Shown here: positions 1,316-62,355 of the stretch, in pieces
Layout of the letters: every line of letters starts with the position of its first letter
How positions within the stretch are numbered: the first letter of the stretch is position 1
NCBI GenBank assembly: GCA_021108405.1
Contig: JAIOQW010000140.1
Span: forward strand, 631 to 64,630
Length of the DNA stretch: 64,000 bases
Direction: 5' to 3'
DNA from: Methanosarcinales archaeon
GTDB lineage: Archaea; Halobacteriota; Methanosarcinia; Methanosarcinales; Methanocomedenaceae
Translations under genes and position numbers: made by a program
Notes under the pieces: model-generated
Database searches by the model: none
Told to the model about the DNA's origin: nothing
What the model saw: only the letters and a program-made list of their open reading frames with translations

Positions 1316-4300
1316 ATGAAGATAAGCATAAGGATTTTCATGGTGTTTTTCATTTTCATCTTGATATCAAGTATAGTTACTTTTTTTATCAGCAGTACAA
1401 CCTCAAAAAATATTACTGAAGAGCAGATATATAACAACCTGAATTCGAATGTGGAGTCAAGAACATTTCATATTAAGACCATTCTGGAAAATTATAAAGA
1501 AATTACCGAGACTATGGCAGTGGGAAATTCATTTAAAGATGCAGTGGACGAGAGCAAGGATTATACTCAACGGATAGAGCAGGTTAACAGACGGATAAAC
1601 AATACAATTCAAAAAAATAATGAAATCCTTGTTTTTGTTATACTGGATAAAAATGGCACAGTAATTGCTTCCAATATGGCAGTTGTCGGACGTGATGATA
1701 GTGCTAGTATTATGTTTTTGGAAGGAAAAGAACACACTTTTATAAATGATATCACTATCTGCAAGATATGTGGAGAACCTGTTATAGGTGTGTCATCTCC
1801 AATTGTTGTAAATGGTGAATTTGCAGGGGTTTGTTCGATATATTATTGGGCTACTGTAGAATTATATGATATCATTACAGGTACAACAGGTTTAAAGCAG
1901 ACAGGTGAGATATATCTTGTGAACAAAGACGGTTTTATGATATCTCCATCAAGGTTTGTAAATGATACTGTTCTTAAACAACAGATAAATATTGAACACG
2001 AATATGAACATTCTTTTAATTCAAATGAATTATTCGTAACTAAAAATTATCTTGATGAGAAGGTATTTAGAGTTCATACCCATATACTTGAAATGGAATG
2101 GTATGTGATCGCTGAAATGAGTGAAGAAGAAGCATTAGCACCTGTTGCACAGTTGAATAATGCTATATTTAGTTTCACATTCGCTCTTATTATAATTGGT
2201 CTGGTCATTTCTATTATTATATCAAGATCGATATCCAAACCTATTAATGACCTGAGTAAAGGAGTTCGTGAAATAAAAAGCGGTAACCTTGATTATCAAT
2301 TGAACATTACAACTGGCGATGAAATAGAATTGTTTGCAAATGAGTTCAATGATATGAGTGATAAATTGAAGAGATCATACTCAGGACTCGAATTAAAAGT
2401 AGAAGAAAGAACTAAAGAAATAACAGATGCTAACAATACGCTCAAGGCAGAAATTGAAAAACACACCGCAATAGAGAATAAACTTAAAAGCAAACAGGTA
2501 ATGGACGCGGCATATTCAAAGATACTTACAATTTCAAATAAAACCATAGATATTGATACACTTCTGGACCAGGGTCTTACAAATCTTATGAAATATACTG
2601 ATTCACCGCTGGGTGCAGTCTATATGTTTGATCCGCAGCGCAATATACTTGTACCAAAGATAACTAAAGGTACTATGAATTCAGTCTCTGATAGGGAATT
2701 TTTAATGGGGGACGGTATCCCGGGTGACGCGGCTCAAAGAAAAACTATGATCGTAGTAACAGATATTCCGGAAGATACCGTATTCAGGATGGAATCAGGA
2801 CTGTGTGAATCACTTCCGACAACCATTGTCAGCATACCAATGATCTTTAAGGATATGCTTTTAGGCGTTATAATAACATGTCATACAGGTAATATCACAC
2901 AGGATAAACTGGATTTTATACAGCGTGTTGTTGATCAGTTTGCAGTATCTGTTAATAATGCTAATTCATATACTCAAATGCAGGTAATGGCAGTTCAAAT
3001 GAAAAATCAGCGTGATGAGCTTGAGATACAATCAAATCAACTTGAAGCAGCTAATAAGACAAAGTCCGAATTCCTGGCAAATATGAGCCATGAGCTAAGA
3101 ACCCCGCTTAATTCTATAATAGGGTTCTCAGAAGTATTACATGATCAAACATTCGGACCTGTAAATGATAAGCAGTTGAAGTATATAAACAATGTACTGA
3201 TAAGTGGCAAGCACTTATTACAGCTTATCAATGATATACTTGATCTATCCAAGGTTGAAGCAGGAAAAGTGGAATTGATCTACGAAGATTTTGAGTTATT
3301 AAGAGCAATAGATGAAGTAAAGACATTGATAATATCGATTGCATCAAAGAAGAATATCTCTATAGAAATAAACATCGAACCGCAACTTACTACCTTACAT
3401 GCAGATATCGGTAAAATCAAACAAATACTGTTCAATCTCCTCAGCAATGCAATAAAATTCTCATCTGAACATTCAGTGGTAACAGTAGATGTAGTTCGTA
3501 TTGAAGATATGGCACAGATATCTGTCACTGATACAGGTATAGGGATATCAAAAGAAGACCAGAAAAAACTGTTTAAGACCTTTGTGCAGATAGATGCAGC
3601 TGCCTCCAGGCAATATGAAGGAACCGGACTGGGTCTGGCTCTTGTCAGGCAGTTTGCACAGTTGCATGGAGGTAGTGCATGGGTAGAAAGCGAATCTGGA
3701 AAAGGTAGTACCTTTATTTTTACCATACCTATTGCAGGTAAGAAGAATATAGAGGATACTGATAAAAATACCAAAAACGAAAATGAAACGAAAGATTCTG
3801 TAACAGTACATCAACCTAAGACTACCAGCACCATTGAAAAAATAAAGAACATCACCATGCCAGATATATTTTCACCTGAAGATGGTACTGGTGATGAGCC
3901 TTTGATCCTAGTAGTGGAAGATGATACGAACTCAAATGAACTGCTGACCAATACTCTTACAGGTGCCGGATACAGGACCATATCTGCTTATACAGGAACC
4001 CAGGCAGTGGCTATTGCACAGAAAATGCAGCCGTTTGCTATCACACTCGATATAATGCTGCCTGGTTTGGACGGATGGGATGTGATGAAATGTCTTAAAT
4101 CCGATCCATTAACAAGGAATATCCCTGTTATTGTTATCTCTATGATAGATGAGAAAGAGTGTGCTTATTCATACGGTATAACTGATTACTTTACCAAACC
4201 TGTTGATAAGGATATATTGTTATCCACACTGAACGATCTTACAAATGGTCTTAATATTGAATCACCAAAGGTACTTGTTGTAGATGATGAACCTGATGTA

Positions 4301-6531: not shown

Positions 6532-7167
6532 TTATGTTTTTTTTAAGGCATCTGCTATTCTTTCAGGAAGAGTATCGAGTTTTTCACTTATATCATCAAG
6601 TACACCTAATTTATTATCCATCCCACCTAGCTTATCATTCATTCCACCAAGCTTATCTTCTATTCTGTCAGGTGCACCCAATTTATCATTCATTCCACCA
6701 AGCTTATCATCCATTCTATCAAGTGCACCTAATTTATCATTCATTCCATCAAGCTTATCATCCATTCTATCAAGTGCACCTAATTTATCATTCATCCCAC
6801 TGAGTATATGAATAATCTCATGAAATAATGATGAATGTTCTGTTAATATCCCAATACCTTTATCGAACCGTTTCATATACTCCCGTATATCTTCAGTCGC
6901 AATCCTGCCGAAAGGAGATGGTAATGTAATATCTTCTTCGATCACTGTAGTTTCTATTGTAATATGCCTATGGGATGTTAGATCATTAATAAAACCTGAA
7001 ATAGATATTTCCGGGCCGCTTGCCATAATCTTGACAGAACCATCAATATCATTAAAAACAAATCCATCTAAACCATTAGCTCTTCCATAAGTTTCTACTA
7101 TATCCCTATATCCTACCATTTGAATATTATTTCTTATGGATAAAAAGATGTTTTTTATATTTGTCAT
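6532..7167 (-). CDS. Acylphosphatase-like domain protein with C-terminal DKLG-type tandem repeats
   Basis: The N-terminal ~90 aa (VGYRDIVETYGRANGLDGFVFNDIDGSVKIMASGP) is acylphosphatase-like. The C-terminal half is GMNDKLGALDRMDDKLD repeated, with a 17-aa period. Confidence 0.55.
   Translation of the reverse strand: MTNIKNIFLSIRNNIQMVGYRDIVETYGRANGLDGFVFNDIDGSVKIMASGPEISISGFINDLTSHRHITIETTVIEEDITLPSPFGRIATEDIREYMKRFDKGIGILTEHSSLFHEIIHILSGMNDKLGALDRMDDKLDGMNDKLGALDRMDDKLGGMNDKLGAPDRIEDKLGGMNDKLGGMDNKLGVLDDISEKLDTLPERIADALKKT
6598..6800 (-). repeat. In-frame tandem repeat: 51-bp (17-codon) unit, about 2.6 near-identical copies plus diverged units
   Basis: Units at 6669-6719 and 6720-6770 differ at a few positions. 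A third copy starts at 6771. More diverged 24-27 bp sub-units run from 6598 to 6668. Confidence 0.85.
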
Positions 7168-12470: not shown

Positions 12471-12537
12471 GAACAAAATCCTCCCTCTGGTCGGATTTTC
12501 TTGAGTATATATCCCTATAGATTATATACTATAAAAA
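12471..12537 (+). repeat. Hairpin mosaic element, modules A-H
   Basis: GAACAAAATCCTCCCTCTGGTCGGATTTTCTTGA followed by AGTATATA-11 nt-TATATACT and an A-run. It starts 14 nt after the nfeD stop. Confidence 0.85.
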
Positions 12538-22972: not shown

Positions 22973-23209
22973 TTTTTATAGTATATCAAATATAACTTGA
23001 TATATCGAAAATGCTTCGCATTTTCTAATCCTCCATTCCTCCAGAATGTCGGTCAATAAAATCCGAGCGGTAGCGAGGATTTTGTTCCAGTATATATTTC
23101 ATAAAAATATATCTCAAGTAAATGCGAACGAAGTGAGCATTTTTTTGTAGTATATCAAGTATAACTTGATGTACTCAAGAAAATCCGAGCGGTAGCGAGG
23201 ATTTTGTTC
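22973..23209 (-). repeat. Two adjacent mosaic elements in reverse orientation (F-Eshort-B-A, then extra hairpins-Elong-F-A)
   Basis: TAGTATATCAAATATAACTTGATATA; GAAAATGC-TTC-GCATTTTC; CTCCATTCCTCCAGAATGTCGG; AAAATCCGAGCGGTAGCGAGGATTTTGTTC occurs twice (ending at 23087 and 23209). Confidence 0.85.
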
Positions 23210-23319
23210 CAATAAAAGTAAAAGAAGGTTGAAGATACGGGATATACATATTCACCAGCATCAAGGCAAGCATTGATATCAATTCAAAGATTTTTTTCGC
23301 TTTTTCCAGGGGTTAATAC

Positions 23320-32670: not shown

Positions 32671-33354
32671 CTAAACTGTCTTTTTTACACGCCATTTAAG
32701 CAGTACACCGTCATCTATTTTCTCAATTGAGATCAATTCAAGTCCGGATGCTTGCTTACGGCGTGAAAAACCAATTCCATCAACCAGTGTAGGAGCTTGT
32801 TCACCACCCAGTATTACTGCACCTATGTAGGTGTAGATCTCATCCACAAGCCCTTGAGAGACCAGTGAACAATTTAGAGTTGCACCACCTTCGGCCATTA
32901 GTGTATGAATACCTTTTTGGTGTAGGGATGACATCAATATATTCAAATCTACCTGTACATTACCTGCTGTGATTATAGTAGCCTTTTTCTTAAGTTCTTC
33001 AATTTGCTGTATGGGAGCTTGCTCACATACAGCTATTATTCGCTCTGCATCCCCTTTTATAAAGATATCAGATTCAATGGGTGTTCTGGCCATACTGTCT
33101 ACTACTATCCTGATAGGGTTCTCATATCCGTACTTCTCTTTGTATGCACGTCTGAGATTGCTTGATTTGATAGTTAGACTGGGATCATCAGCCAGTACTG
33201 TGCCGATACCTACCATCACGGCATCGGCACCGGCACGTAAACGGTCTACTCTTGCAAAATCATTATCTCCTGATATCCTTACCTGTTTTCTTAGATTGGT
33301 TGAGATCTTACCATCTGCCGACATGGCAGCGTTAATGAAAGTAAATGGACGCAT
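32671..33354 (-). CDS. 2,5-diamino-6-ribosylamino-4(3H)-pyrimidinone 5'-phosphate reductase (RibD C-terminal type)
   Basis: MRPFTFINAAMSADGKIS, VMVGIGTVLADDPSLT, LMAEGGATLN. Confidence 0.8.
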   Translation of the reverse strand: MRPFTFINAAMSADGKISTNLRKQVRISGDNDFARVDRLRAGADAVMVGIGTVLADDPSLTIKSSNLRRAYKEKYGYENPIRIVVDSMARTPIESDIFIKGDAERIIAVCEQAPIQQIEELKKKATIITAGNVQVDLNILMSSLHQKGIHTLMAEGGATLNCSLVSQGLVDEIYTYIGAVILGGEQAPTLVDGIGFSRRKQASGLELISIEKIDDGVLLKWRVKKTV

Positions 33355-33400: not shown

Positions 33401-33435
33401 GAACAAAATCCTCCCTCCGGTCGGATTTTCTTGAC
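33401..33435 (+). repeat. Module A alone, directly upstream of the IS91-like transposase gene
   Basis: GAACAAAATCCTCCCTCCGGTCGGATTTTCTTGA. Next comes a CATTTTCT/AGAAAATG hairpin (about 33455-33488) whose arms match the module E stem. Confidence 0.85.
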
Positions 33436-33495
33436 GTATAGGAATTTATAAACACATTTTCTTATCCTGCTACTGAAATAGAAAATGTTGAAAGA

Positions 33496-34365
33496 ATGAG
33501 GTTTTGTAGAAAGCCTCAAAATGGATATAAAGTATATAAGTGTCCGAAATGTGAAACAAAGAAGTACGTATCTTTCACTTGTAAGACTCGTCTATGTACA
33601 TCATGTGGAACAAAATCGGCTAATGAATTTGCAGATAAAATTTATCATAGACTTCTAAGAGTCCCACACAGGCATGTTGTTTTTACTATTCCTGACAGGT
33701 TAAGGGAGACTTTCAAGATTTCTGATCATCAGAAAATTCTCTTTGAGGCAGCAAAAGTAACAATGGGAGATATGATCCAGTTTTCAAATAAAAAAAGCAA
33801 GAGAAAAATAAAGTTGAAAATTGGCATGATTCAGTTTCTGCAAACATTTGGTGCAGATATGAAATATAATCATCATATTCATAGCATTGTTACTGAAGGT
33901 GGTTTTGATAGAAATGGGAACTGGATTCATGTACATTTTATACACTATAAAGGATGGAGGAAAAAGTGGCAATATGAATTACTGACAAGGCTGAAAAAAG
34001 AAATGCCAAGATGCAAAGAGACAAATAAGTTCATAGACTTGCAATTTAAAAAATATCCAAATGGATTTGTAATTTACGGTAAAAGAAGATTTGAAAAAAG
34101 AGATGGGTGGAATATGGCAAGGTATATTGGTAGATATGTTAAGCATCCACCAATAGCCGAATCAAGAATAAAAGCCTATGATGGAAAACATGTAATATTC
34201 TGGTATAAAGACACTGAAACCAAAAGGAAGATAACTGTAACAATGGATAAAATTGAGTTTGTGCGATTACTGCTAAGTCACATACCAGTAAAATATTTTA
34301 GAACTGTTAGGTACTATGGTGTCTATTCAAGAAGAGGATACAAGCATAGAAATGGTTGTACTTAA
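33496..34365 (+). CDS. IS91-family-like rolling-circle (HUH, Y2) transposase, probably C-terminally truncated or frameshifted
   Basis: Zn-binding N-terminus CPKCETKKYVSFTCKTRLCTSCG. VPHRHVVFTIPDRLR. HUH motif NHHIHSIVTEGGF. RYIGRYVKHPPIAESRI. Tyrosine motif RTVRYYGVYSRR. An open +1 frame continues to about 34470. Confidence 0.75.
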   Translation: MRFCRKPQNGYKVYKCPKCETKKYVSFTCKTRLCTSCGTKSANEFADKIYHRLLRVPHRHVVFTIPDRLRETFKISDHQKILFEAAKVTMGDMIQFSNKKSKRKIKLKIGMIQFLQTFGADMKYNHHIHSIVTEGGFDRNGNWIHVHFIHYKGWRKKWQYELLTRLKKEMPRCKETNKFIDLQFKKYPNGFVIYGKRRFEKRDGWNMARYIGRYVKHPPIAESRIKAYDGKHVIFWYKDTETKRKITVTMDKIEFVRLLLSHIPVKYFRTVRYYGVYSRRGYKHRNGCT

Positions 34366-34532
34366 AGCCGCTGAAAGTGGAATTGGTAGAGATCAAACTT
34401 TAAGTGATATTGAATATTTGAAATTTAGGGGATATGTCTATGAGCCTAAAACAGGAGAAATTAGATATGCATTATAAGCGGTAGCCGAAGCGTATATGCT
34501 GTGTTAGACGATAATGCGAACGAATGGGCATA

Positions 34533-35111
34533 TTAATCACTTTTTTCCGATTTCGGTATTCCTATCCATCTTGGTGTCCTTTTCATATATTCTTTGTAAT
34601 CCTTTCCATACCTTTTAAGACAATATTGTTCTTCAGCAGGTGCAAATATCAAGTGAAAAATTCCCATTATTACTGTAAGCATTAGAAACACCCATGAAAC
34701 ACTGGCTATGGCAATGCTTAAAAATATCAAAGTTTGTGCAACATAATAGGGATGCCTTGAGTAACGGTAGGGTCCTTTGGTGAAAGGTTTACCAATTGGA
34801 GTAGTCCGAACAAAAAAAGTAGCTGATAGGGAAATAACAAATGCTATTAGGAAGATTATTAAACCTATGAAAAACCATACTTTTCCTAATTGCAATGGCA
34901 GAAAGATGGAATAGATAATTCCAGCAACCATAATAGCCGTAGAAATGACATTAAGTAATTTTTCATGCTTAATAGGAACAGAAACATTCAGTCTTTTTGA
35001 TGTTGCTTTACCTTTACCTACTAAAATCGATATAATCGGAGGGAGAAGAAAACAGACCATAAAAATCCAGGCATTCCATAAACCTATCTCAAAAGCTGGT
35101 GTAATCGACAT
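34533..35111 (-). CDS. Isoprenylcysteine carboxyl methyltransferase (ICMT/PEMT)-family membrane methyltransferase
   Basis: TKGPYRYSRHPYYVAQTLIFLSIA...APAEEQYCLKRYGKDYKEYMKRTPRWIP. 5 TM. Confidence 0.7.
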   Translation of the reverse strand: MSITPAFEIGLWNAWIFMVCFLLPPIISILVGKGKATSKRLNVSVPIKHEKLLNVISTAIMVAGIIYSIFLPLQLGKVWFFIGLIIFLIAFVISLSATFFVRTTPIGKPFTKGPYRYSRHPYYVAQTLIFLSIAIASVSWVFLMLTVIMGIFHLIFAPAEEQYCLKRYGKDYKEYMKRTPRWIGIPKSEKSD

Positions 35112-36206: not shown

Positions 36207-36643
36207 GTTGAGCTCGACGCTGAATCGGCCCGTACTTCAAACGCCATTGGACAGTATGACGACGAGGGCGACCGTTGTCAGGAGCCACATAGTCATCAAT
36301 GCAAGACGACCTAAATCCTGACTAGTCCTTCCATTTCGTGTTTTTTTGAGTATATTTGGAAGAGCCATATTAATGAATTTTTATTGTTATTAGTATGCAC
36401 CTGTATCCTCATCCACCAGCCCATGATTTGCATTAGGATAAAAATATGGGTGAATTCTTAATCCTTATTTCAGTGTGGTTTGTGTTGATTTATGATGGTT
36501 AAGATATATAACATTGAGATCATCAAATTATCTCCCAAAATCTCTCAATCTAATTAACTTATATTTATCCTCTGGATGTGCGCCTGATTTTCTATTTTCA
36601 AAAAGATGTTTTTGCTTCTATCTACTCTGAGGAGCATGATTTT

Positions 36644-37018
36644 CTATTTTGCAGTCACTATACTATACGGACTTAAGTCCAAGGCCTGTTTATAAACCTC
36701 AGCTTTTAGATTTTCTATCTTGTCCGGCAATATAATTTTCAACAACTTCCCAGCCACTTCGAACACTTCCATAATAACAACTTTGTGCCCGGAGACTTTG
36801 CTTACATCTTTCTTTAAGTTTAAGGAAATTTGTAATATCCTACTACTCCTTCTTTTAATTCTCTTTGTAATAAAGTTTATGGAATAATTTAGAAGAAATT
36901 GAATAAATAGATGTACATGATCTAGATTATTTGCCATATTAATAATCTCAATATTCAAAACCAAGTTAGCAAAGACAGTGCTAATATCATGTTTACTCTC
37001 AACAACAATTTTATAACC
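36644..37018 (-). pseudogene. Decayed IS200/IS605-type TnpA (Y1 HUH transposase) gene
   Basis: YKIVVESKH (cf. YHIVW), HUH motif DHVHLFI, KRRSSRIL (cf. KGxSSR), AEVYKQ (cf. YIxxQ). An in-frame TAG lies 2 codons upstream of the YKIVV block, no proper start exists, and the middle is diverged. Confidence 0.55.
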
Positions 37019-37043
37019 CTATATATTATATAATAATAAACCC

Positions 37044-37340
37044 AAAATGCTTCGCATATTCTTAACCAAAGCTACAAAGGAGCCAAAGAGAACAAAATCC
37101 TTCCTTCGGTCGGATTTTCTTGACCGACATTCCGGAGGAATGGAGGATTAGAAAATGTGAACGAAGTGAGCATTTTCGATATATCAAGTTATACTTGATA
37201 TACTATAAGAAAACACGAAGTGTTTTTACCCTCCATTCCCACGAAATGTCGGGTGATCATATCGAAGATTCTACGAATCTTCTAATCTTCGGCTCTTTTC
37301 GAGTCTCAGATAAGCAAATCCGAACGAAGTGAGGATTTGC
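37044..37340. repeat. Largest mosaic array: Eshort, A-B-Elong-F forward, then G hairpin, B, C and D-like reversed, and a terminal GCAAATCC-[GAACGAAGTGA]-GGATTTGC hairpin
   Basis: Read directly. A starts at 37090. GAAAATGT-GAACGAAGTGA-GCATTTTC spans 37151-37177. F spans about 37178-37208. AAAACAC-GAA-GTGTTTT. GAAGATTC-TAC-GAATCTTC. The final hairpin spans 37314-37340. The array ends 22 nt before the ferredoxin start. Confidence 0.85.
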
Positions 37341-37362
37341 TTAACGTAAAAACTCTTGTAAG

Positions 37363-42919: not shown

Positions 42920-43705
42920 CTACTGTTGAAAATTTAATATTTTTTTATCCAGTATTTCTGTGACAGGGTTCTTCTGTATGGAAGATGTAAGTATTGCATC
43001 CCATACAAGATCAGAATCTTTTAAATCTGTTATAATAAGGTATTCCGGAGAAGCTGCCTTTTGTAAGATTAAGGCATGCTGCTTTAACACTTTTTCTCCT
43101 ATATCACTTGAAATGATTATTTTTTTATCATTCAATGAACCATATGAAGTTACATAGTCTATTATAACATTCAATCCTGTTATATCTTTTGAGAATATTA
43201 CAATATATTCAATATCTATAGTATCATCCGGAAACGTACCCGGGAAATATTTTGAGTCATAATCAATTCTTTTTTCAAGTACTGGTATCCCAACTGCTGT
43301 GGCATAATTTCCCATTAGTCTTACAAGATTATATTTAACCGAGTTATCATAAATTATCAGCATAGAGCTCATATTAGATTCTTCTGTGCTCTCTGGTTTA
43401 TTATCATCTATATCGCTATCTGATCCGGTGTCATCATCTTCATCACTGTCTACATCATCTGCTTCGCTATCTGATTCACTGTCATCATCTACACCGCTAT
43501 CTGTATCATCATCGTCATCCACATCGCTGTCTGACTCACTGTTATCATCTACATCACTGTCTGGTTCATCGTTGTCATCTCCATCACTATCTGACTCTGC
43601 TTGAGATATTTCTAGGTTTGTTAACGCTAGCAACCCACCAGTCAGAAGAATTGTGATAATCACTAATATGACCCTTATTCTCATATGTTCTAATTCCTTT
43701 TCCAT
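42920..43705 (-). CDS. Signal-anchored protein with ~70-aa Asp/Ser-rich repeat region and C-terminal globular domain
   Basis: N-terminal TM VILVIITILLTGGLLAL, six DSDxDDxxxx-type decamers, then about 150 aa of ordinary sequence. It is the first gene of the three-gene minus-strand cluster. Confidence 0.6.
   Translation of the reverse strand: MEKELEHMRIRVILVIITILLTGGLLALTNLEISQAESDSDGDDNDEPDSDVDDNSESDSDVDDDDDTDSGVDDDSESDSEADDVDSDEDDDTGSDSDIDDNKPESTEESNMSSMLIIYDNSVKYNLVRLMGNYATAVGIPVLEKRIDYDSKYFPGTFPDDTIDIEYIVIFSKDITGLNVIIDYVTSYGSLNDKKIIISSDIGEKVLKQHALILQKAASPEYLIITDLKDSDLVWDAILTSSIQKNPVTEILDKKILNFQQ
43390..43600 (-). repeat. In-frame ~30-bp periodic repeat encoding DSD(V/G/I)DD decamers
   Basis: The protein reads DSDGDDNDEP DSDVDDNSES DSDVDDDDDT DSGVDDDSES DSEADDV... 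DSDIDDNKPE. The shadow ORF on the opposite strand is correspondingly repetitive. Confidence 0.8.
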
Positions 43706-44795: not shown

Positions 44796-45236
44796 ATGGT
44801 TGATTTTAATAAATTGCAAAAACCTGTTTTAATTTCAGGAATTCCGGCTGGATTAATTTCAGTGATCCCATTTATACATTGTCTATGCTGCGTGTGGCTG
44901 ATACTGTTTGGTTTTCTATCAGCATATTTATTTAAAAAAGATACAGGAACTCTGGAAATCGAAGACGGTGTAATATCCGGAGCTCTAACTGGTTTAGTAG
45001 CATTTGTTATTATGATGATTTTATCTATAATCTTTATATTTTTTAAAGTTGGAATATCCCCTCTAATGGGAGAAGATATGGCAATGCAAGGTATTATGTC
45101 AGGTTTTTCTTTATTATTTATATTATTCACAGGGTTAATACAAATCATCGTATTTCCGATTTTCGGAGCAATTGGCGGAATAATTGGAGCTGTATTGTTG
45201 AAAGATAAAGAACTGAGTGAACAAAATCCTCGCTAA
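44796..45236 (+). CDS. Small polytopic membrane protein of unknown function
   Basis: 4 TM segments. The ATG at 44796 is preferred because the track start at 44757 lies inside the repeat. The last five codons and the stop (EQNPR*) are encoded by module A. Confidence 0.5.
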   Translation: MVDFNKLQKPVLISGIPAGLISVIPFIHCLCCVWLILFGFLSAYLFKKDTGTLEIEDGVISGALTGLVAFVIMMILSIIFIFFKVGISPLMGEDMAMQGIMSGFSLLFILFTGLIQIIVFPIFGAIGGIIGAVLLKDKELSEQNPR

Positions 45237-45502
45237 CGCTCGGATTTTCTTGACTGAAGCTCCGAAGGAGCTGAAGATTAGAAGATTCGTAGAATCTTCA
45301 CCTGAGGCTCTTAAAAGAGCCTAAGATTAGAAAATGTGAACGGAGTGAGCATTTTCGATATATCGAGTTATACCTGATAGAGGCTGTCCAACAATCCAAA
45401 ATCGGAAGAAAAAGAAAGGCAAATAGGGCTGTTAATCCAAAAACAAGTGAAATTTTTGATACCAAAAGCAATTGTGGGACAGCCTCGATATACTATAAAA
45501 AA
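45219..45502 (+). repeat. Full-length mosaic element A-B'-C-D-E-F, with F interrupted by a 107-bp insertion
   Basis: GAACAAAATCCTCGCTAACGCTCGGATTTTCTTGA; GAAGCTCC-GAA-GGAGCT; GAAGATTC-GTA-GAATCTTC; GGCTCTT-AA-AAGAGCC; GAAAATGT-GAACGGAGTGA-GCATTTTC; split F. Confidence 0.9.
45380..45486. mobile_element. Nested 107-bp TIR element inserted in module F, flanked by a GATA direct duplication
   Basis: 10-bp perfect TIRs GAGGCTGTCC / GGACAGCCTC. GATA occurs at 45376-45379 and again at 45487-45490, while intact F copies have a single GATA (ACTTGATATACT). Confidence 0.6.
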
Positions 45503-46676: not shown

Positions 46677-46835
46677 AAATAAAATCCTCGCTAGCGCTCG
46701 GATTTTATTGACCGACATTCCAGAGAAATGGAGGATTAGAAGATTCGTAGAATCTTCGCCAGAGGCTCTTAAAAGAGCCGAAGAGTAGAAAATGTGAACG
46801 GAGTGAGCATTTTCGATATAGTTGTACTTAATACT
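46676..46835 (+). repeat. Full-length mosaic element A-B-C-D-E-(degenerate F)
   Basis: It starts at the ilvE stop codon and ends at the HNH gene ATG. Modules are as in 45219, except that B (CATTCC-AGA-GAAATG) replaces B'. Confidence 0.9.
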
Positions 46836-47264
46836 ATGAAAAAGACTAATATTAAAAGGACCATACAGTACCGCCGTAAGATCCAGCTTCTTACACAGTT
46901 GTTCAATAAAAGAAAAACTGAGCTATCAGCGGGATATCAGGGGTATCACGAACTTAAAGGGTTTGTGGATGAGTGTGAGCACTGGGGCATAATGGACCGC
47001 GGCCAGGAAAAGGCACTGGATGAGTGGATAGATTTTCTTAACCGCTGGCCTTTTGCAGGAGGAACAACGAAGAGTGCTTTAACACCATACCAGCGAAATA
47101 AGGCGATGGGGAAGCAACAGTTTATATGTACTATGTGCGGCAGGCCTGCAGAAGAGGTGCATCATATAATCCCAAGATCAAAGGGCGGTCGGAATACTTC
47201 TGGTAATCTTACTATATTGTGCAGGGAGTGTCATGAAAAAATTCATAAAAAAAAGAAAAAGTAG
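46836..47264 (+). CDS. Stand-alone HNH endonuclease
   Basis: CTMCGRPAEEVHHIIPRSKGGRNTSGNLTILCRECHEKIH. I did not recognise the N-terminal ~90 aa. The track start at 46794 lies inside the repeat, so the ATG at 46836 is preferred. Confidence 0.75.
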   Translation: MKKTNIKRTIQYRRKIQLLTQLFNKRKTELSAGYQGYHELKGFVDECEHWGIMDRGQEKALDEWIDFLNRWPFAGGTTKSALTPYQRNKAMGKQQFICTMCGRPAEEVHHIIPRSKGGRNTSGNLTILCRECHEKIHKKKKK

Positions 47265-59842: not shown

Positions 59843-60739
59843 ATGGAACTTGAAGGATTACGACATGGAACTGAATTATTAAAACGCGGATTTGCCAGTA
59901 TGCAAAAAGGTGGTGTTGTTATGGATGTCACAACTTCGGATGAGGCACATATTGCAGAAGATGCCGGTGCTGTAGCGGTCATGGCCCTGCATATGGTTCC
60001 TGCTGATATCAGAAAGATCGGTGGTGTGGCACGTATGGCTGACCCACAAATTATTTCGCAGATCATTGATGCTGTTACCATACCGGTTATGGCTAAGGCA
60101 CGTATCGGCCATTTTGTAGAAGCTGATATACTACAATCATTGGGTGTAGACCTGGTAGATGAATCTGAAGTGTTGACCCCTGCAGATGAGAAATATCATA
60201 TTGATAAAAGGAACTTTACCATTCCTTTCATATGCGGAGCCAGGGATCTGGGTGAAGCTCTACGTAGAATTCATGAAGGAGCGGCCATGATACGTACCAA
60301 AGGGGAAGCAGGTACAGGTGATATACGCGAAGCTGTCAGACATATCCGTGTGATCAATGAACAGATAGGTAAGCTTAAAGGGATGAATATACAAGAGATG
60401 GAAAGAGTGGCAAGAGAGATTGAAGCACCTATAGAATTAGTTATAGAGACAGGAGAACGCCAGCGTCTTCCCGTAGTAAACTTTGCTGCCGGCGGGGTTG
60501 CTACACCCGCAGATGCTGCCCTGATGATGAGACTGGGTGCAGATGGTGTTTTTGTAGGTAGCGGTATATTCAAAGCAGAGAATCCGTCCACTATGGCAAG
60601 TGCTATTGTGGATGCAGTCAACAATTTCGATGATGCTAAGGTGCTGGGTGAGATATCCAAGGGTCTGGGAGAACAGATGAAAGGTATAAGCATTGATACC
60701 ATCCCGAAAGAGGAGATATTACAGACCCGAGGATGGTAA
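59843..60739 (+). CDS. pdxS: Pyridoxal 5'-phosphate synthase, lyase subunit
   Basis: [48 protein letters not shown]. Confidence 0.95.
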
Positions 60740-60885
60740 ATAAAATCCTCGCTAGCGCTCGGATTTTCTTGACTGAAGCTTCGAAGAAGCTGAAGATTAG
60801 AAGATTCGTAGAATCTTCGTCTGACATTCCGGAGGAATGGAGGATTAGATAATGTGAACGGGGTGAGCATTTTCGATGTATCAAG
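60740..60885 (+). repeat. Full-length mosaic element A-B'-C-B-E-(degenerate F)
   Basis: It starts 1 nt after the pdxS stop. B' here is GAAGCTTC-GAA-GAAGCT, a compensated variant. The E loop is GAACGGGGTGA. Confidence 0.9.
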
Positions 60886-60891
60886 ATATTT

Positions 60892-62355
60892 ATGAATACA
60901 GAACATCAGGAATGGGCTGAAAAATACCGCCCGAAAAACCTACAGGAAATAGCAGGGCATAATAAAATAGTACAGGACCTGCTTATATGGGCCCGGGAAT
61001 GGGATAAAGGGAGTCCAAAAGATAAAGCATTGATACTGCATGGAAAACCCGGTGTAGGTAAGACATCTTTCGTACATGCTCTGGCATACCAGATGGAATG
61101 GGATAAAATAGAGCTCAATGCATCTGATCAGAGGACTGCAAGCATTATAAAGAAAGTAGCAGGTTCTGCCAGTAAGATGGGAACCTTTAGCGGTATTTCA
61201 GGTAAGCGTCTGGTAATACTGGATGAAGCCGATAATCTACATGGTAATTACGACCGTGGTGGCGCCAGGGCCATTATCCAGGTCATTAAGCGAACGTCCC
61301 AACCTATCATCCTGATCGCTAATGAGTTCTATAATGTAGAGCCGGCATTACGCCTGTCCTGCAAAGCCATACAGTTCAAAGCACTAAGAAGTTCATCAAT
61401 TGTATCAGTATTAAAGAACATTTGTATAAAGGAAGATGTGAAGGTAAGTAAGGATGTCCTGGATACAATAGCCAGTAGTGCTAACGGGGATTTACGAAGT
61501 GCAATTAATGACCTGCAGGCTATGTCAATTGGAAAAAGTGAACTTACCATAGATGATATTACTACAGGTTCCAGGGATATAAGAGAAACAATATTTAAGG
61601 CAATGAATAAAATATTTAGAGGGACTGATATACGATCTGCACAAGAAGCTGCCTGGAAGATAGATGAGAGTCCCGAGAACCTGATAAACTGGGTAGATGA
61701 AAACCTTCCTATAGCATATAAAAAAGATACGGACTTAGCAGCCGGATATACCATGCTGTCCAGAGCTGACCTGTTCCTGGGTAGGGTACGGCGCAGACAG
61801 AATTATAGACTCTGGCGTTATGCCAGTCTTTTCATGACCGGGGGTATAGCGGCTGTTAAAACGCAAAGTTATTCGGGTTTTATCAATTTCAAGTCTCCCC
61901 AGTACTGGAGAAAACTTGGACAGACCAGGACAAAACGCAACATAAGGGATTCAACAGCCAGTAAGATCGGGGTGTTATGTCATGTATCAAAGAAAAATGC
62001 CAGGGCCGATCTTATATGGTTCTTTAAAGGCATGATGAAAAGTAAACAACATTCAACAGTATTATCAGTGGAACTAGATTTAAATCCTGATGAGATCGCA
62101 TTTTTACTGGATACAAAGCCAACCACCAAAAAAGTAAAGCAAATCTATGATGCAGCTCAGGAGATGATCACAGAAAAGCTGGAGCATGACATTGAAGTAT
62201 TCGGTGGATTTGGTTATAATGATGATAACCTGCAGAACAAGAAAATTGAGGAAGAGGTAGAGGTAATAGAGCAGGTTATAGAACAGGTTACAGATGAGCA
62301 AGAAGTGCATAACGAGACTGAAAAAGGAAGGCAGAAATCTCTGTTTGATTTCTAA
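60892..62355 (+). CDS. rfcL: Replication factor C large subunit
   Basis: WAEKYRPKNLQEIAGH, HGKPGVGKTS, LDEADNL, and an acidic C-terminal tail ending in the PCNA-interaction-like QKSLFDF. Confidence 0.9.
   Translation: MNTEHQEWAEKYRPKNLQEIAGHNKIVQDLLIWAREWDKGSPKDKALILHGKPGVGKTSFVHALAYQMEWDKIELNASDQRTASIIKKVAGSASKMGTFSGISGKRLVILDEADNLHGNYDRGGARAIIQVIKRTSQPIILIANEFYNVEPALRLSCKAIQFKALRSSSIVSVLKNICIKEDVKVSKDVLDTIASSANGDLRSAINDLQAMSIGKSELTIDDITTGSRDIRETIFKAMNKIFRGTDIRSAQEAAWKIDESPENLINWVDENLPIAYKKDTDLAAGYTMLSRADLFLGRVRRRQNYRLWRYASLFMTGGIAAVKTQSYSGFINFKSPQYWRKLGQTRTKRNIRDSTASKIGVLCHVSKKNARADLIWFFKGMMKSKQHSTVLSVELDLNPDEIAFLLDTKPTTKKVKQIYDAAQEMITEKLEHDIEVFGGFGYNDDNLQNKKIEEEVEVIEQVIEQVTDEQEVHNETEKGRQKSLFDF

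Follow-up and report, generated by a model that had tools for sequence, protein, structure and literature searches.

A decayed archaeal IS91-family insertion sequence behind a hairpin module, and the ends and target of its family

The subject of this report is a stretch of 64,000 nucleotides (the window) from a contig of a Methanosarcinales metagenome-assembled genome (MAG), and in particular its tnpA, a gene for an IS91-like transposase. The IS91-like copy in the window is a non-functional relic. Its remains, from 33435 to ~34498, are very probably those of a dead, decayed archaeal insertion sequence (IS) of the IS91 family, which entered right after a hairpin repeat called module A. Modules of this kind build intergenic mosaics, and these mosaics are preferred targets of the IS, used at least three times: in the window and in two related loci, L028 and L033. 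They are targets and not termini of the element.

Why should a dead element attract attention? Its relatives allow the ends and a 9-nt target to be defined, from ~50 copies, for an uncharacterised archaeal IS91 branch that is multicopy in the genomes of Methanoperedens and of ANME-2 (anaerobic methanotrophic archaea). What is new relative to known IS91 elements is the inverted polarity, the long T-rich target, the added protein domains and the archaeal host. The polarity of this branch with respect to the transposase gene is reversed from the model element, which bears on strand choice by Y2 HUH enzymes. There is also a testable link, in archaea, between an HUH transposase and hairpin mosaics resembling bacterial interspersed mosaic elements (BIMEs).

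The transposase, the ends of its family and the target

To judge from its sequence, the open reading frame (ORF) is an IS91-family Y2 HUH transposase with predicted catalytic motifs. An earlier note on this DNA had proposed as much from the letters alone, and profile searches agree: the ORF matches Pfam Y2_Tnp (PF04986; 3.5e-35, 122 bits against a cut-off of 20.9, model positions 1-178 of 183) and Zn_Tnp_IS91 (PF14319; 4.8e-18, 65 bits, cut-off 26.3). With NCBIfam NF033538, "IS91 family transposase" (cut-off 125), it scores 238 bits, and the full-length homologue P0006 scores 288.6. The Zn-binding Cys cluster, the HUH motif (H127-I-H129) and the YxxxY motif (Y273/Y277 in RYYGVYS) lie where the note had placed them (Table 1); H175/H177 and Y321/Y325, in P0006 numbering, are invariant across the homologue alignment A1.

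The homologues (54-81% identity) fall into ~70 clusters, which stem from Methanosarcinales, Methanoperedens and related metagenomes; several occur in multiple copies. The belief that the IS91 family is rare in archaea thus fails for this clade. To our knowledge, the family was formerly considered absent from archaea, and a literature search found no paper linking IS91 to these organisms. In the database protein clusters the homologues are almost always 466-468 aa long, and the 289-aa ORF is therefore not a whole transposase gene; relative to them it lacks ~49 N-terminal and ~135 C-terminal residues.

Both missing parts have their own peculiarities. The N-terminal extension (P0006 residues 1-48) is conserved in A1 and contains a hydrophobic stretch, KSVTITVTIALILFS, unusual in a transposase. 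It may be a genuine domain, or else left-end DNA whose reading is conserved. The C-terminal ~65 aa of the full-length protein fall outside the coverage of the canonical IS91 profiles, and residues 401-466 of P0006 (window 34365-34477) weakly resemble an archaeal MCM winged helix (PF21120, 6.6e-4; NF040949, 1.1e-4; both below the cut-off). As for genomic setting, a Methanoperedens copy (L014-L023; 1309-2490, 4392-7125) has an IS110-family transposase gene immediately upstream and abuts a type I restriction-modification/GmrSD cluster, its stop codon overlapping the end of the neighbouring gene.

The ends of the family were defined from ~110 fetched relatives, 80 of these loci contributed by one metagenome scan. 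Full-length elements measure ~1.53-1.65 kb, encode a 467-aa Y2 HUH transposase and run from ^CGTATAGGAAAGTATAAAC to GCCCCGA(T)AGGGGCTTTCTTGA^, the caret marking the junction with the flank. One protein, P0006, is 78% identical to the window ORF and found on 12 contigs, four of them with different surroundings: across these contexts, similarity begins at ^CGTATAGGAAAGTATAAAC and ends at ...TTTTGCCCCGAAGGGGCTTTCTTGA^. These copies, identical in protein, diverge exactly at ^CGTATAGG and CTTGA^. Some 50 more loci, at 65-90% aa identity, have the same ends. On the left, conservation spans ~22 nt (64 junctions aligned in register). The right end, conserved over the same range of protein identity, is a hairpin, GCCCC-GA(T)A-GGGGC, followed by TTTCTTGA; on the sense strand it reads ...GCCCCGAAGGGGCTTTCTTGA, then flank. 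Its variant GCACCC/GGGTGC is compensatory, the stem being kept by changes on both sides.

Two absences are observed just as directly. Terminal inverted repeats are absent, the ends CGTATAGG... and ...GGGGCTTTCTTGA being unrelated, and so is a target-site duplication, since the two flanks of a given copy differ from each other; the insertion into a ParE gene in L028 is precise. On a practical note, the IS copies break metagenome assemblies: many of them sit on IS-sized contigs of ~1.6 kb, as expected of a repeat with this effect.

The two sides of the element are treated differently by the target. On the right, the 49 distinct flanks are compositionally unconstrained. On the left, all 45 junctions, a few of which retain IS-internal sequence upstream, have a specific 5' flank on the transposase-sense strand, with the consensus TTTTYTYRA immediately before the IS. 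Positions -9 to -6 form a T-run, followed by T or C at -5, T at -4 (45/45), T, C or G at -3, a purine at -2 (41/45; A 27, G 14) and A at -1 (44/45). The earlier expectation of insertion beside CTTG or GTTC holds in that such sites are used; they serve only within this wider consensus, and CTTG(A) and GTTC(A) together make up only about a third of the 45 junctions. If the A at the junction belongs to the IS, the sites become CTTG^, GTTC^, TTTA^ and TTCA^, which cover both canonical IS91 tetranucleotides.

Is a hairpin also needed at the target? Left flanks of 44 nt do not fold better than right flanks (mean minimum free energy -1.56 vs -1.78 kcal/mol; Mann-Whitney p = 0.57) or than shuffled sequences. 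The target is recognised by its sequence, and a hairpin is not required.

The last eight bases of the element, TTTCTTGA, themselves fit the target motif. Because the element ends in a hairpin plus this octamer, its preferred target is a copy of its own tail, and self-targeting is indeed observed: right ends joined to left ends occur in L035, L040, L068 and L076, and partial left-end arrays break at internal ..ATCTTGA or ..TTCTTGA sites (L040, L042, L049-51, L057-59). Tandem arrays of left-end fragments of 35, 49 and 71 nt are found at L040 1652-1930, L059 489-750, L050/L051 90-350 and L042 2335-2480, each fragment starting with CGTATAGG and ending at an internal ..CTTGA or ..TTCAA. These arrays look like repeated self-insertions or abortive rolling-circle events, an assembly artefact being also possible. 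Together with the right-left junctions, they may be an indirect sign of rolling-circle transposition through single-stranded circular intermediates.

Decay of the window copy and the hairpins beside it

What is left of the window copy was mapped by affine-gap pairwise alignment to four full-length references; a MAFFT alignment of the whole element had misplaced the window sequence around the deletions. Three deletions account for its present state (Table 1). The first removed the remainder of the left end and codons 1 to ~42, and corresponds to reference positions 1858-2020 in L033, 582-744 in L029 and 5819-5982 in L001. The second took out the CPxC region and a linker and shifted the frame, leaving the ...SDIEYLKFRGYVYEPKTGEIRYAL* tail of tnpA out of frame with the transposase core. 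The third took the canonical right end, including the 3' terminal hairpin, which is present in the relatives, the closest full-length ones among them, and wholly gone here. An in-frame stretch upstream of the ATG (..NTF..) was considered as a relic of N-terminal coding sequence and rejected, since 33435-33477 aligns as the non-coding left end of the IS.

Table 1. Features of the window around the decayed element
Feature	Position	Strand	Remarks
Gene with RibD_C domain	32671-33354	-	neighbouring host gene
Module A, GAAC-AAAATCC-TCCCTCCGGTC-GGATTTT-CTTGA	33401-33434	+	mosaic hairpin repeat
Module A stem arms, AAAATCC / GGATTTT	33405-33411 / 33423-33429		
Module A loop	33412-33422		
Module A tail, CTTGA	33430-33434		
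Octamer TTTCTTGA of module A	33427-33434	+	insertion target
IS left (ori-like) end, CGTATAGGAATTTATAAACACATTTTCTTATCC...	33435-33477	+	88% identical to the L029 and L001 left ends
Deletion 1 junction	33475-33482	+	~163 nt gone between 33477 and 33478, inside microhomology GAAATAGA
tnpA ORF, truncated, 289 aa	33496-34365	+	residues ~49-333 of the 467-aa protein
Zn-binding Cys cluster of tnpA	33505-33606	+	
HUH motif	33874-33882	+	
YxxxY motif	34312-34326	+	
Deletion 2 junction	34348-34365	+	~280-296 nt gone
Last ~37 tnpA codons, winged-helix-like tail	34365-34477	+	within ORF 34316-34477
Residual ~20 nt past the stop codon	34478-34498	+	canonical right end AATTTTGCCCCGAAGGGGCTTTCTTGA gone (deletion 3)
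3' flank of the PEMT gene	34499-34532	+	host DNA outside the IS; homology resumes at ~34499
E-like hairpin, AATGC-GAACGAATGG-GCAT	34513-34531		within host DNA
PEMT/ICMT-family methyltransferase gene	34533-35111	-	neighbouring host gene
IS200-like Y1 HUH transposase pseudogene	36644-36964	-	Pfam Y1_Tnp 8.2e-7, 29.6 bits, cut-off 23; considered with its flanks, 36300-37110

Two hairpins had been reported to bracket the gene, and each turned out to be something other than an end of the element. The inverted repeat formed by CATTTTCT (33455-33462) and AGAAAATG (33480-33487) does exist. One partner belongs to the IS left end (..AAACRCATTTTCTTATCC, also in L029, L035 and L001) and the other to the tnpA codons I-E-N-V; in intact copies these pieces are ~180 nt apart. 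The hairpin is therefore a by-product of deletion 1, which joined two unrelated pieces. Likewise, the E-type hairpin behind the gene is present, and is host DNA. L106, which carries a PEMT gene 92% identical to that of the window and no IS, reads ...agtgattaa^TATGCCCATTCGTTCGCAATATTGTCTAACAG straight after the stop codon, and TATGCCCATTCGTTCGCAATATTGTCTAACAG, reverse-complemented, differs from window ~34499-34532 at three places. The idea that this hairpin is a lineage-specific terminal hairpin of the IS was rejected for this reason, and because the canonical GC hairpin is found in all of the closest full-length relatives. PEMT orthologues show no synteny on the IS side. The PEMT protein itself shares 93% identity with a protein that bears the name Ca. 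Methanomarinus.

Elsewhere in the window, imperfect tandem repeats occur at 6564-6809 (periods of 51, 30 and 21 nt) and 43403-43594 (30 and 51 nt). They lie inside long ORF regions and are probably repetitive protein-coding sequence.

Hairpin mosaics as targets, and their possible mobility

Module A is a real repeat, as had been claimed: within three mismatches the window contains six copies, and 100 shuffles contain none. The six copies with a TCCCTYYGGTC loop (12471, 15703, 33401, 37090, 50368 and 56362) are all on the + strand, and those with a TCGCTAxCGCTC loop are on both strands. Directly after the ...TTTCTTGA of module A the next piece begins at once, be it F, B, H or the IS91-like element, and the window copy of the latter starts exactly past CTTGA, at 33435, the next base. 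This regularity had already been noticed. It finds its explanation in the tail of module A being the family target, hence the different sequences that all start right after CTTGA.

The same coincidence makes the mosaics hot spots of insertion, because module A ends exactly in TTTCTTGA, which is both IS target and IS tail. The window holds 13 exact copies of this octamer, against 3.9 expected from base composition, and 10 of the 13 are module-A tails. The earlier suggestion that the mosaics are preferred targets is borne out by hits in three loci. Besides the window, L028 has the IS between a module A, with one mismatch to the window copy, and a module F, GTATATTATCTTATAGATTATATACTA; the uninterrupted A^F units at 12471 and 15703 therefore represent paralogous empty sites for it. 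In L033, the left flank ATGCGAACGAAGTGAGCATTTTCTTGA equals the E module at 23119-23143 of the window, exactly over 22 nt, followed by CTTGA, i.e., an E-type hairpin plus TTTCTTGA.

Longer mosaics lie at 23005-23210, 37090-37344, 45219-45380, 46677-46840 and 60738-60900. Between the CTTGA of module A and the F palindrome they hold optional units B, C, D and H, ending in ..GATTAG or ..GAGTAG, and then E plus TTTTCGA; E has a constant loop, GAACGAAGTGA, and stems that vary from copy to copy. Because the first G of the F palindrome is missing from the long mosaics, they are not simple insertions into the short form. One oddity concerns tnpA itself, whose coding sequence at 33606-33616 holds GGAACAAAATC, the 5' arm of module A (also in L001, 6110-6138). 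In the Methanoperedens copy, GCGAACGAATGGGCA comes next, which coincides with 15 nt of the host E-like hairpin (34516-34530). Odd as it is, this overlap is probably due to chance, since the codons encode G-T-K-S-A-N-E-W-A.

A further question is what the mosaics themselves are. They may be non-autonomous rolling-circle elements, with the 61-nt A+F unit as the minimal form, mobilised in trans by IS91-like transposases and growing by nesting; this is a tentative proposal, plausible but somewhat less likely than not. The top strand of module A ends ...GGATTTTCTTGA, then F, and the bottom strand ends ...GGATTTTGTTCT, then flank. The unit would lie on the strand opposite to that read so far, starting with TAGTATATAATCTATAAG (ori-like), ending with the A hairpin plus TTTTGTTC (ter-like) and inserting 3' of T-runs, while the TTTCTTGA of the other strand would attract the IS and further modules. 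Its boundaries would be TAGTATAT...GTTC(T), beside T-runs. Read on the bottom strand, the unit closes with AAAATCC...GGATTTTGTTC(T), made up of a hairpin, a T-run and GTTC, vs the hairpin plus TTTCTTGA of the IS.

A case for such mobility comes from L028, the only locus in which a coding frame fixes the outer boundaries of A+F. Here, A (34 nt), the IS and F (27 nt) interrupt a ParE/RelE-type toxin gene precisely between codons K31 and L32, leaving halves at 2177-2269 and 3974-4135. Once joined, the halves give one continuous match to ParE_toxin (positions 1-89 of 89) and align without gaps to an intact toxin of the window. The site on the top strand, GGGAAA^TTAAAA, is not an IS target; therefore either the composite moved as a whole, or A+F was there before the IS. 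Read from the bottom strand, the same site is CATTTTTTAA^ (TTTTTTAA^), a perfect family target. Other points agree: in 6-7 of the 8 short A+F copies, a T-run plus A or G directly adjoins the F side; the 3' end is a hairpin plus TTTTGTTC, GTTC being an alternative IS91-type site, and GTTCA^ serves two IS copies (L040, L063); GTATA occurs near the 5' end of both the A+F unit and the IS; and the optional modules begin exactly at the CTTGA^ of module A and finish with the E hairpin plus TTTTCGA.

Several observations speak against mobilisation in trans. The boundaries are gene-fixed for one mosaic insertion only; flank position -2 is mostly T, where the IS has a purine; GTATA apart, the unit does not really resemble the IS left end; the sole IS91-like transposase copy in the 64 kb is dead; and, with the G of F missing, the long forms do not derive from the short one by clean insertion. 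A search for empty and filled pairs of the A+F unit, through the exact NfeD protein, found only the same genome.

A bolder version, rather speculative, sees the mosaics as nested, hairpin-only rolling-circle miniature inverted-repeat transposable elements (MITEs) driven by the archaeal IS91-like Y2 transposase. Their terminal hairpin may be two-faced, one strand being the unit's own termination signal (hairpin plus TTTTGTTC) and the other a cleavage-site decoy (hairpin plus TTTCTTGA). If this were true, the decoy would recruit insertions and produce BIME-like mosaics module by module, an archaeal, Y2-based counterpart of the bacterial systems that pair repetitive extragenic palindromes (REPs) with REP-associated tyrosine transposases (RAYTs).

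Alternatively, the mosaics could serve the host as intergenic hairpins, for example at transcript 3' ends as terminators (hairpin plus oligo-T), being hit by the IS only for their TTTCTTGA. This is conceivable, if on the doubtful side. It would fit their intergenic position, often just past stop codons, the E-type stems that vary around a constant loop (family D11), the conservation of the E-like hairpin behind the PEMT gene in two genomes, and IS targeting that does without a hairpin. It sits poorly with the toxin ORF of L028, which A+F interrupts, so that at least that unit moves, and with copies in both orientations relative to the neighbouring genes. No Rfam family matches the 64-kb window, and a scan of viral contigs for module A gave one unrelated chance match and nothing else. 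A host function of the hairpins is compatible with their use as IS targets.

Far less probable is a relationship with the other transposase remnant of the window, the Y1 pseudogene, in which case the mosaics would be satellites of an IS200-like enzyme, of the REP type or that of the palindrome-associated transposable elements (PATEs), with the IS91-like copy a bystander. REP/RAYT systems and the PATEs of IS200 are established precedents, and the long mosaic (37030-37344) stops 98 nt upstream of the Y1 remnant. With ~15 mosaics per 64 kb, one beside a given gene is not unusual, and it stands on one side only, where REP/RAYT has a repeat-flanked Y1 gene. The flanks of three homologues (L110, L111 and L112) have no A, E or F module; L110 and L111 share a different downstream sequence (..TTATGCTCGGATAG..) with the window, and L112 does not.

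Finally, the strong form of the earlier idea, in which A and E/F are the true conserved ori and ter termini of the IS, suggested by module A abutting the element in the window and L028 and by F following it directly in L028, is refuted by the flank comparison: unrelated DNA stands at 43 of 45 left junctions and at almost all of the 49 right flanks, A+F is an uninterrupted 61-nt unit at 12471, 15703, 50368, 56362 and elsewhere, and the E-like hairpin is host DNA.

Proposed mechanism and comparison with known systems

How would such an element move? By analogy with IS91 (PMC13181058), the transposase would nick 3' of the T-rich motif and attach covalently, one strand would be displaced, beginning at the ori-like left end and finishing at the ter-like hairpin plus TTTCTTGA, and this single strand would be inserted 3' of a similar motif, where the ori-like left end would be joined. 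In this way the window element would have come to lie directly behind module A; afterwards its 5' coding part, an internal segment and the terminal hairpin were lost.

Some points weigh against this account. The mechanism, activity included, would be borrowed from IS91 (PMC13181058), and the assignment of ori and ter depends solely on which side bears the conserved flank. The polarity with respect to tnpA is the reverse of that in IS91, so that the analogy may fail in detail. The junction can be placed in two ways one base apart, as CTTGA^ or as CTTG^A. In addition, the A^IS junctions of the window and L028 might go back to one event, if A+IS+F is a mobile composite, which would leave only two independent hits on modules.

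Among known systems, IS91, IS801 and IS1294 are the closest. They share with the archaeal family an N-terminal Zn-binding domain, a Y2_Tnp core with HUH and YxxxY motifs, and the lack of inverted repeats and of target duplication. Insertion 3' of a specific sequence is also comparable, CTTG and GTTC being among the forms that it takes in the archaeal elements. In IS91 (PMC13181058), where the bottom strand is active, terIS, a single subterminal palindrome by the cleavage tetranucleotide, is placed upstream of orf121-tnpA, and oriIS is found downstream of tnpA together with the target tetranucleotide. The archaeal elements are likewise built with one end that is a subterminal palindrome plus a target-like cleavage motif, as in terIS, and another that abuts the target, as in oriIS (PMC13181058). 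Unlike in IS91 (PMC13181058), the ter-like end is downstream of tnpA, the ori-like end upstream, and the motifs are on the tnpA-sense strand; a layout with terIS upstream, oriIS downstream and an active strand antisense to tnpA is thus not what the archaeal elements have. They also differ from IS91 in the longer, T-rich target TTTTYTYRA, in the extra ~49-aa N-terminal segment and in the C-terminal tail resembling, by matches below the cut-off, the archaeal MCM winged helix. Their hosts are ANME-2 and Methanoperedens archaea, unlike those of IS91, IS801 and IS1294.

As for the IS200/IS605 family, whose Y1 HUH enzymes work by "peel and paste", its members have subterminal hairpins, produce no duplication and give rise to short hairpin-only derivatives, the PATEs. 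The geometry is the same as here, the target lying on the tnpA-bearing strand, 5' to the left end. The differences lie in the protein, which in the archaeal family is of the Y2_Tnp, IS91 type and not Y1_Tnp, and in the conserved GC hairpin, which is found here at the right end only.

The mosaics, in turn, recall those of Enterobacteria, where REPs and BIMEs are intergenic mosaics of several hairpin modules that go with RAYT transposases, and where IS1397 and ISKpn1 insert specifically into BIMEs. Mosaics of hairpin modules, specific insertion of an IS and a possible HUH transposase partner are common to both cases. Unlike in that system, the specificity here resides in an 8-nt motif at the foot of the hairpin that equals the IS tail, with no hairpin requirement detected, the candidate partner is a Y2 and not a Y1 enzyme, and the host is an archaeon.

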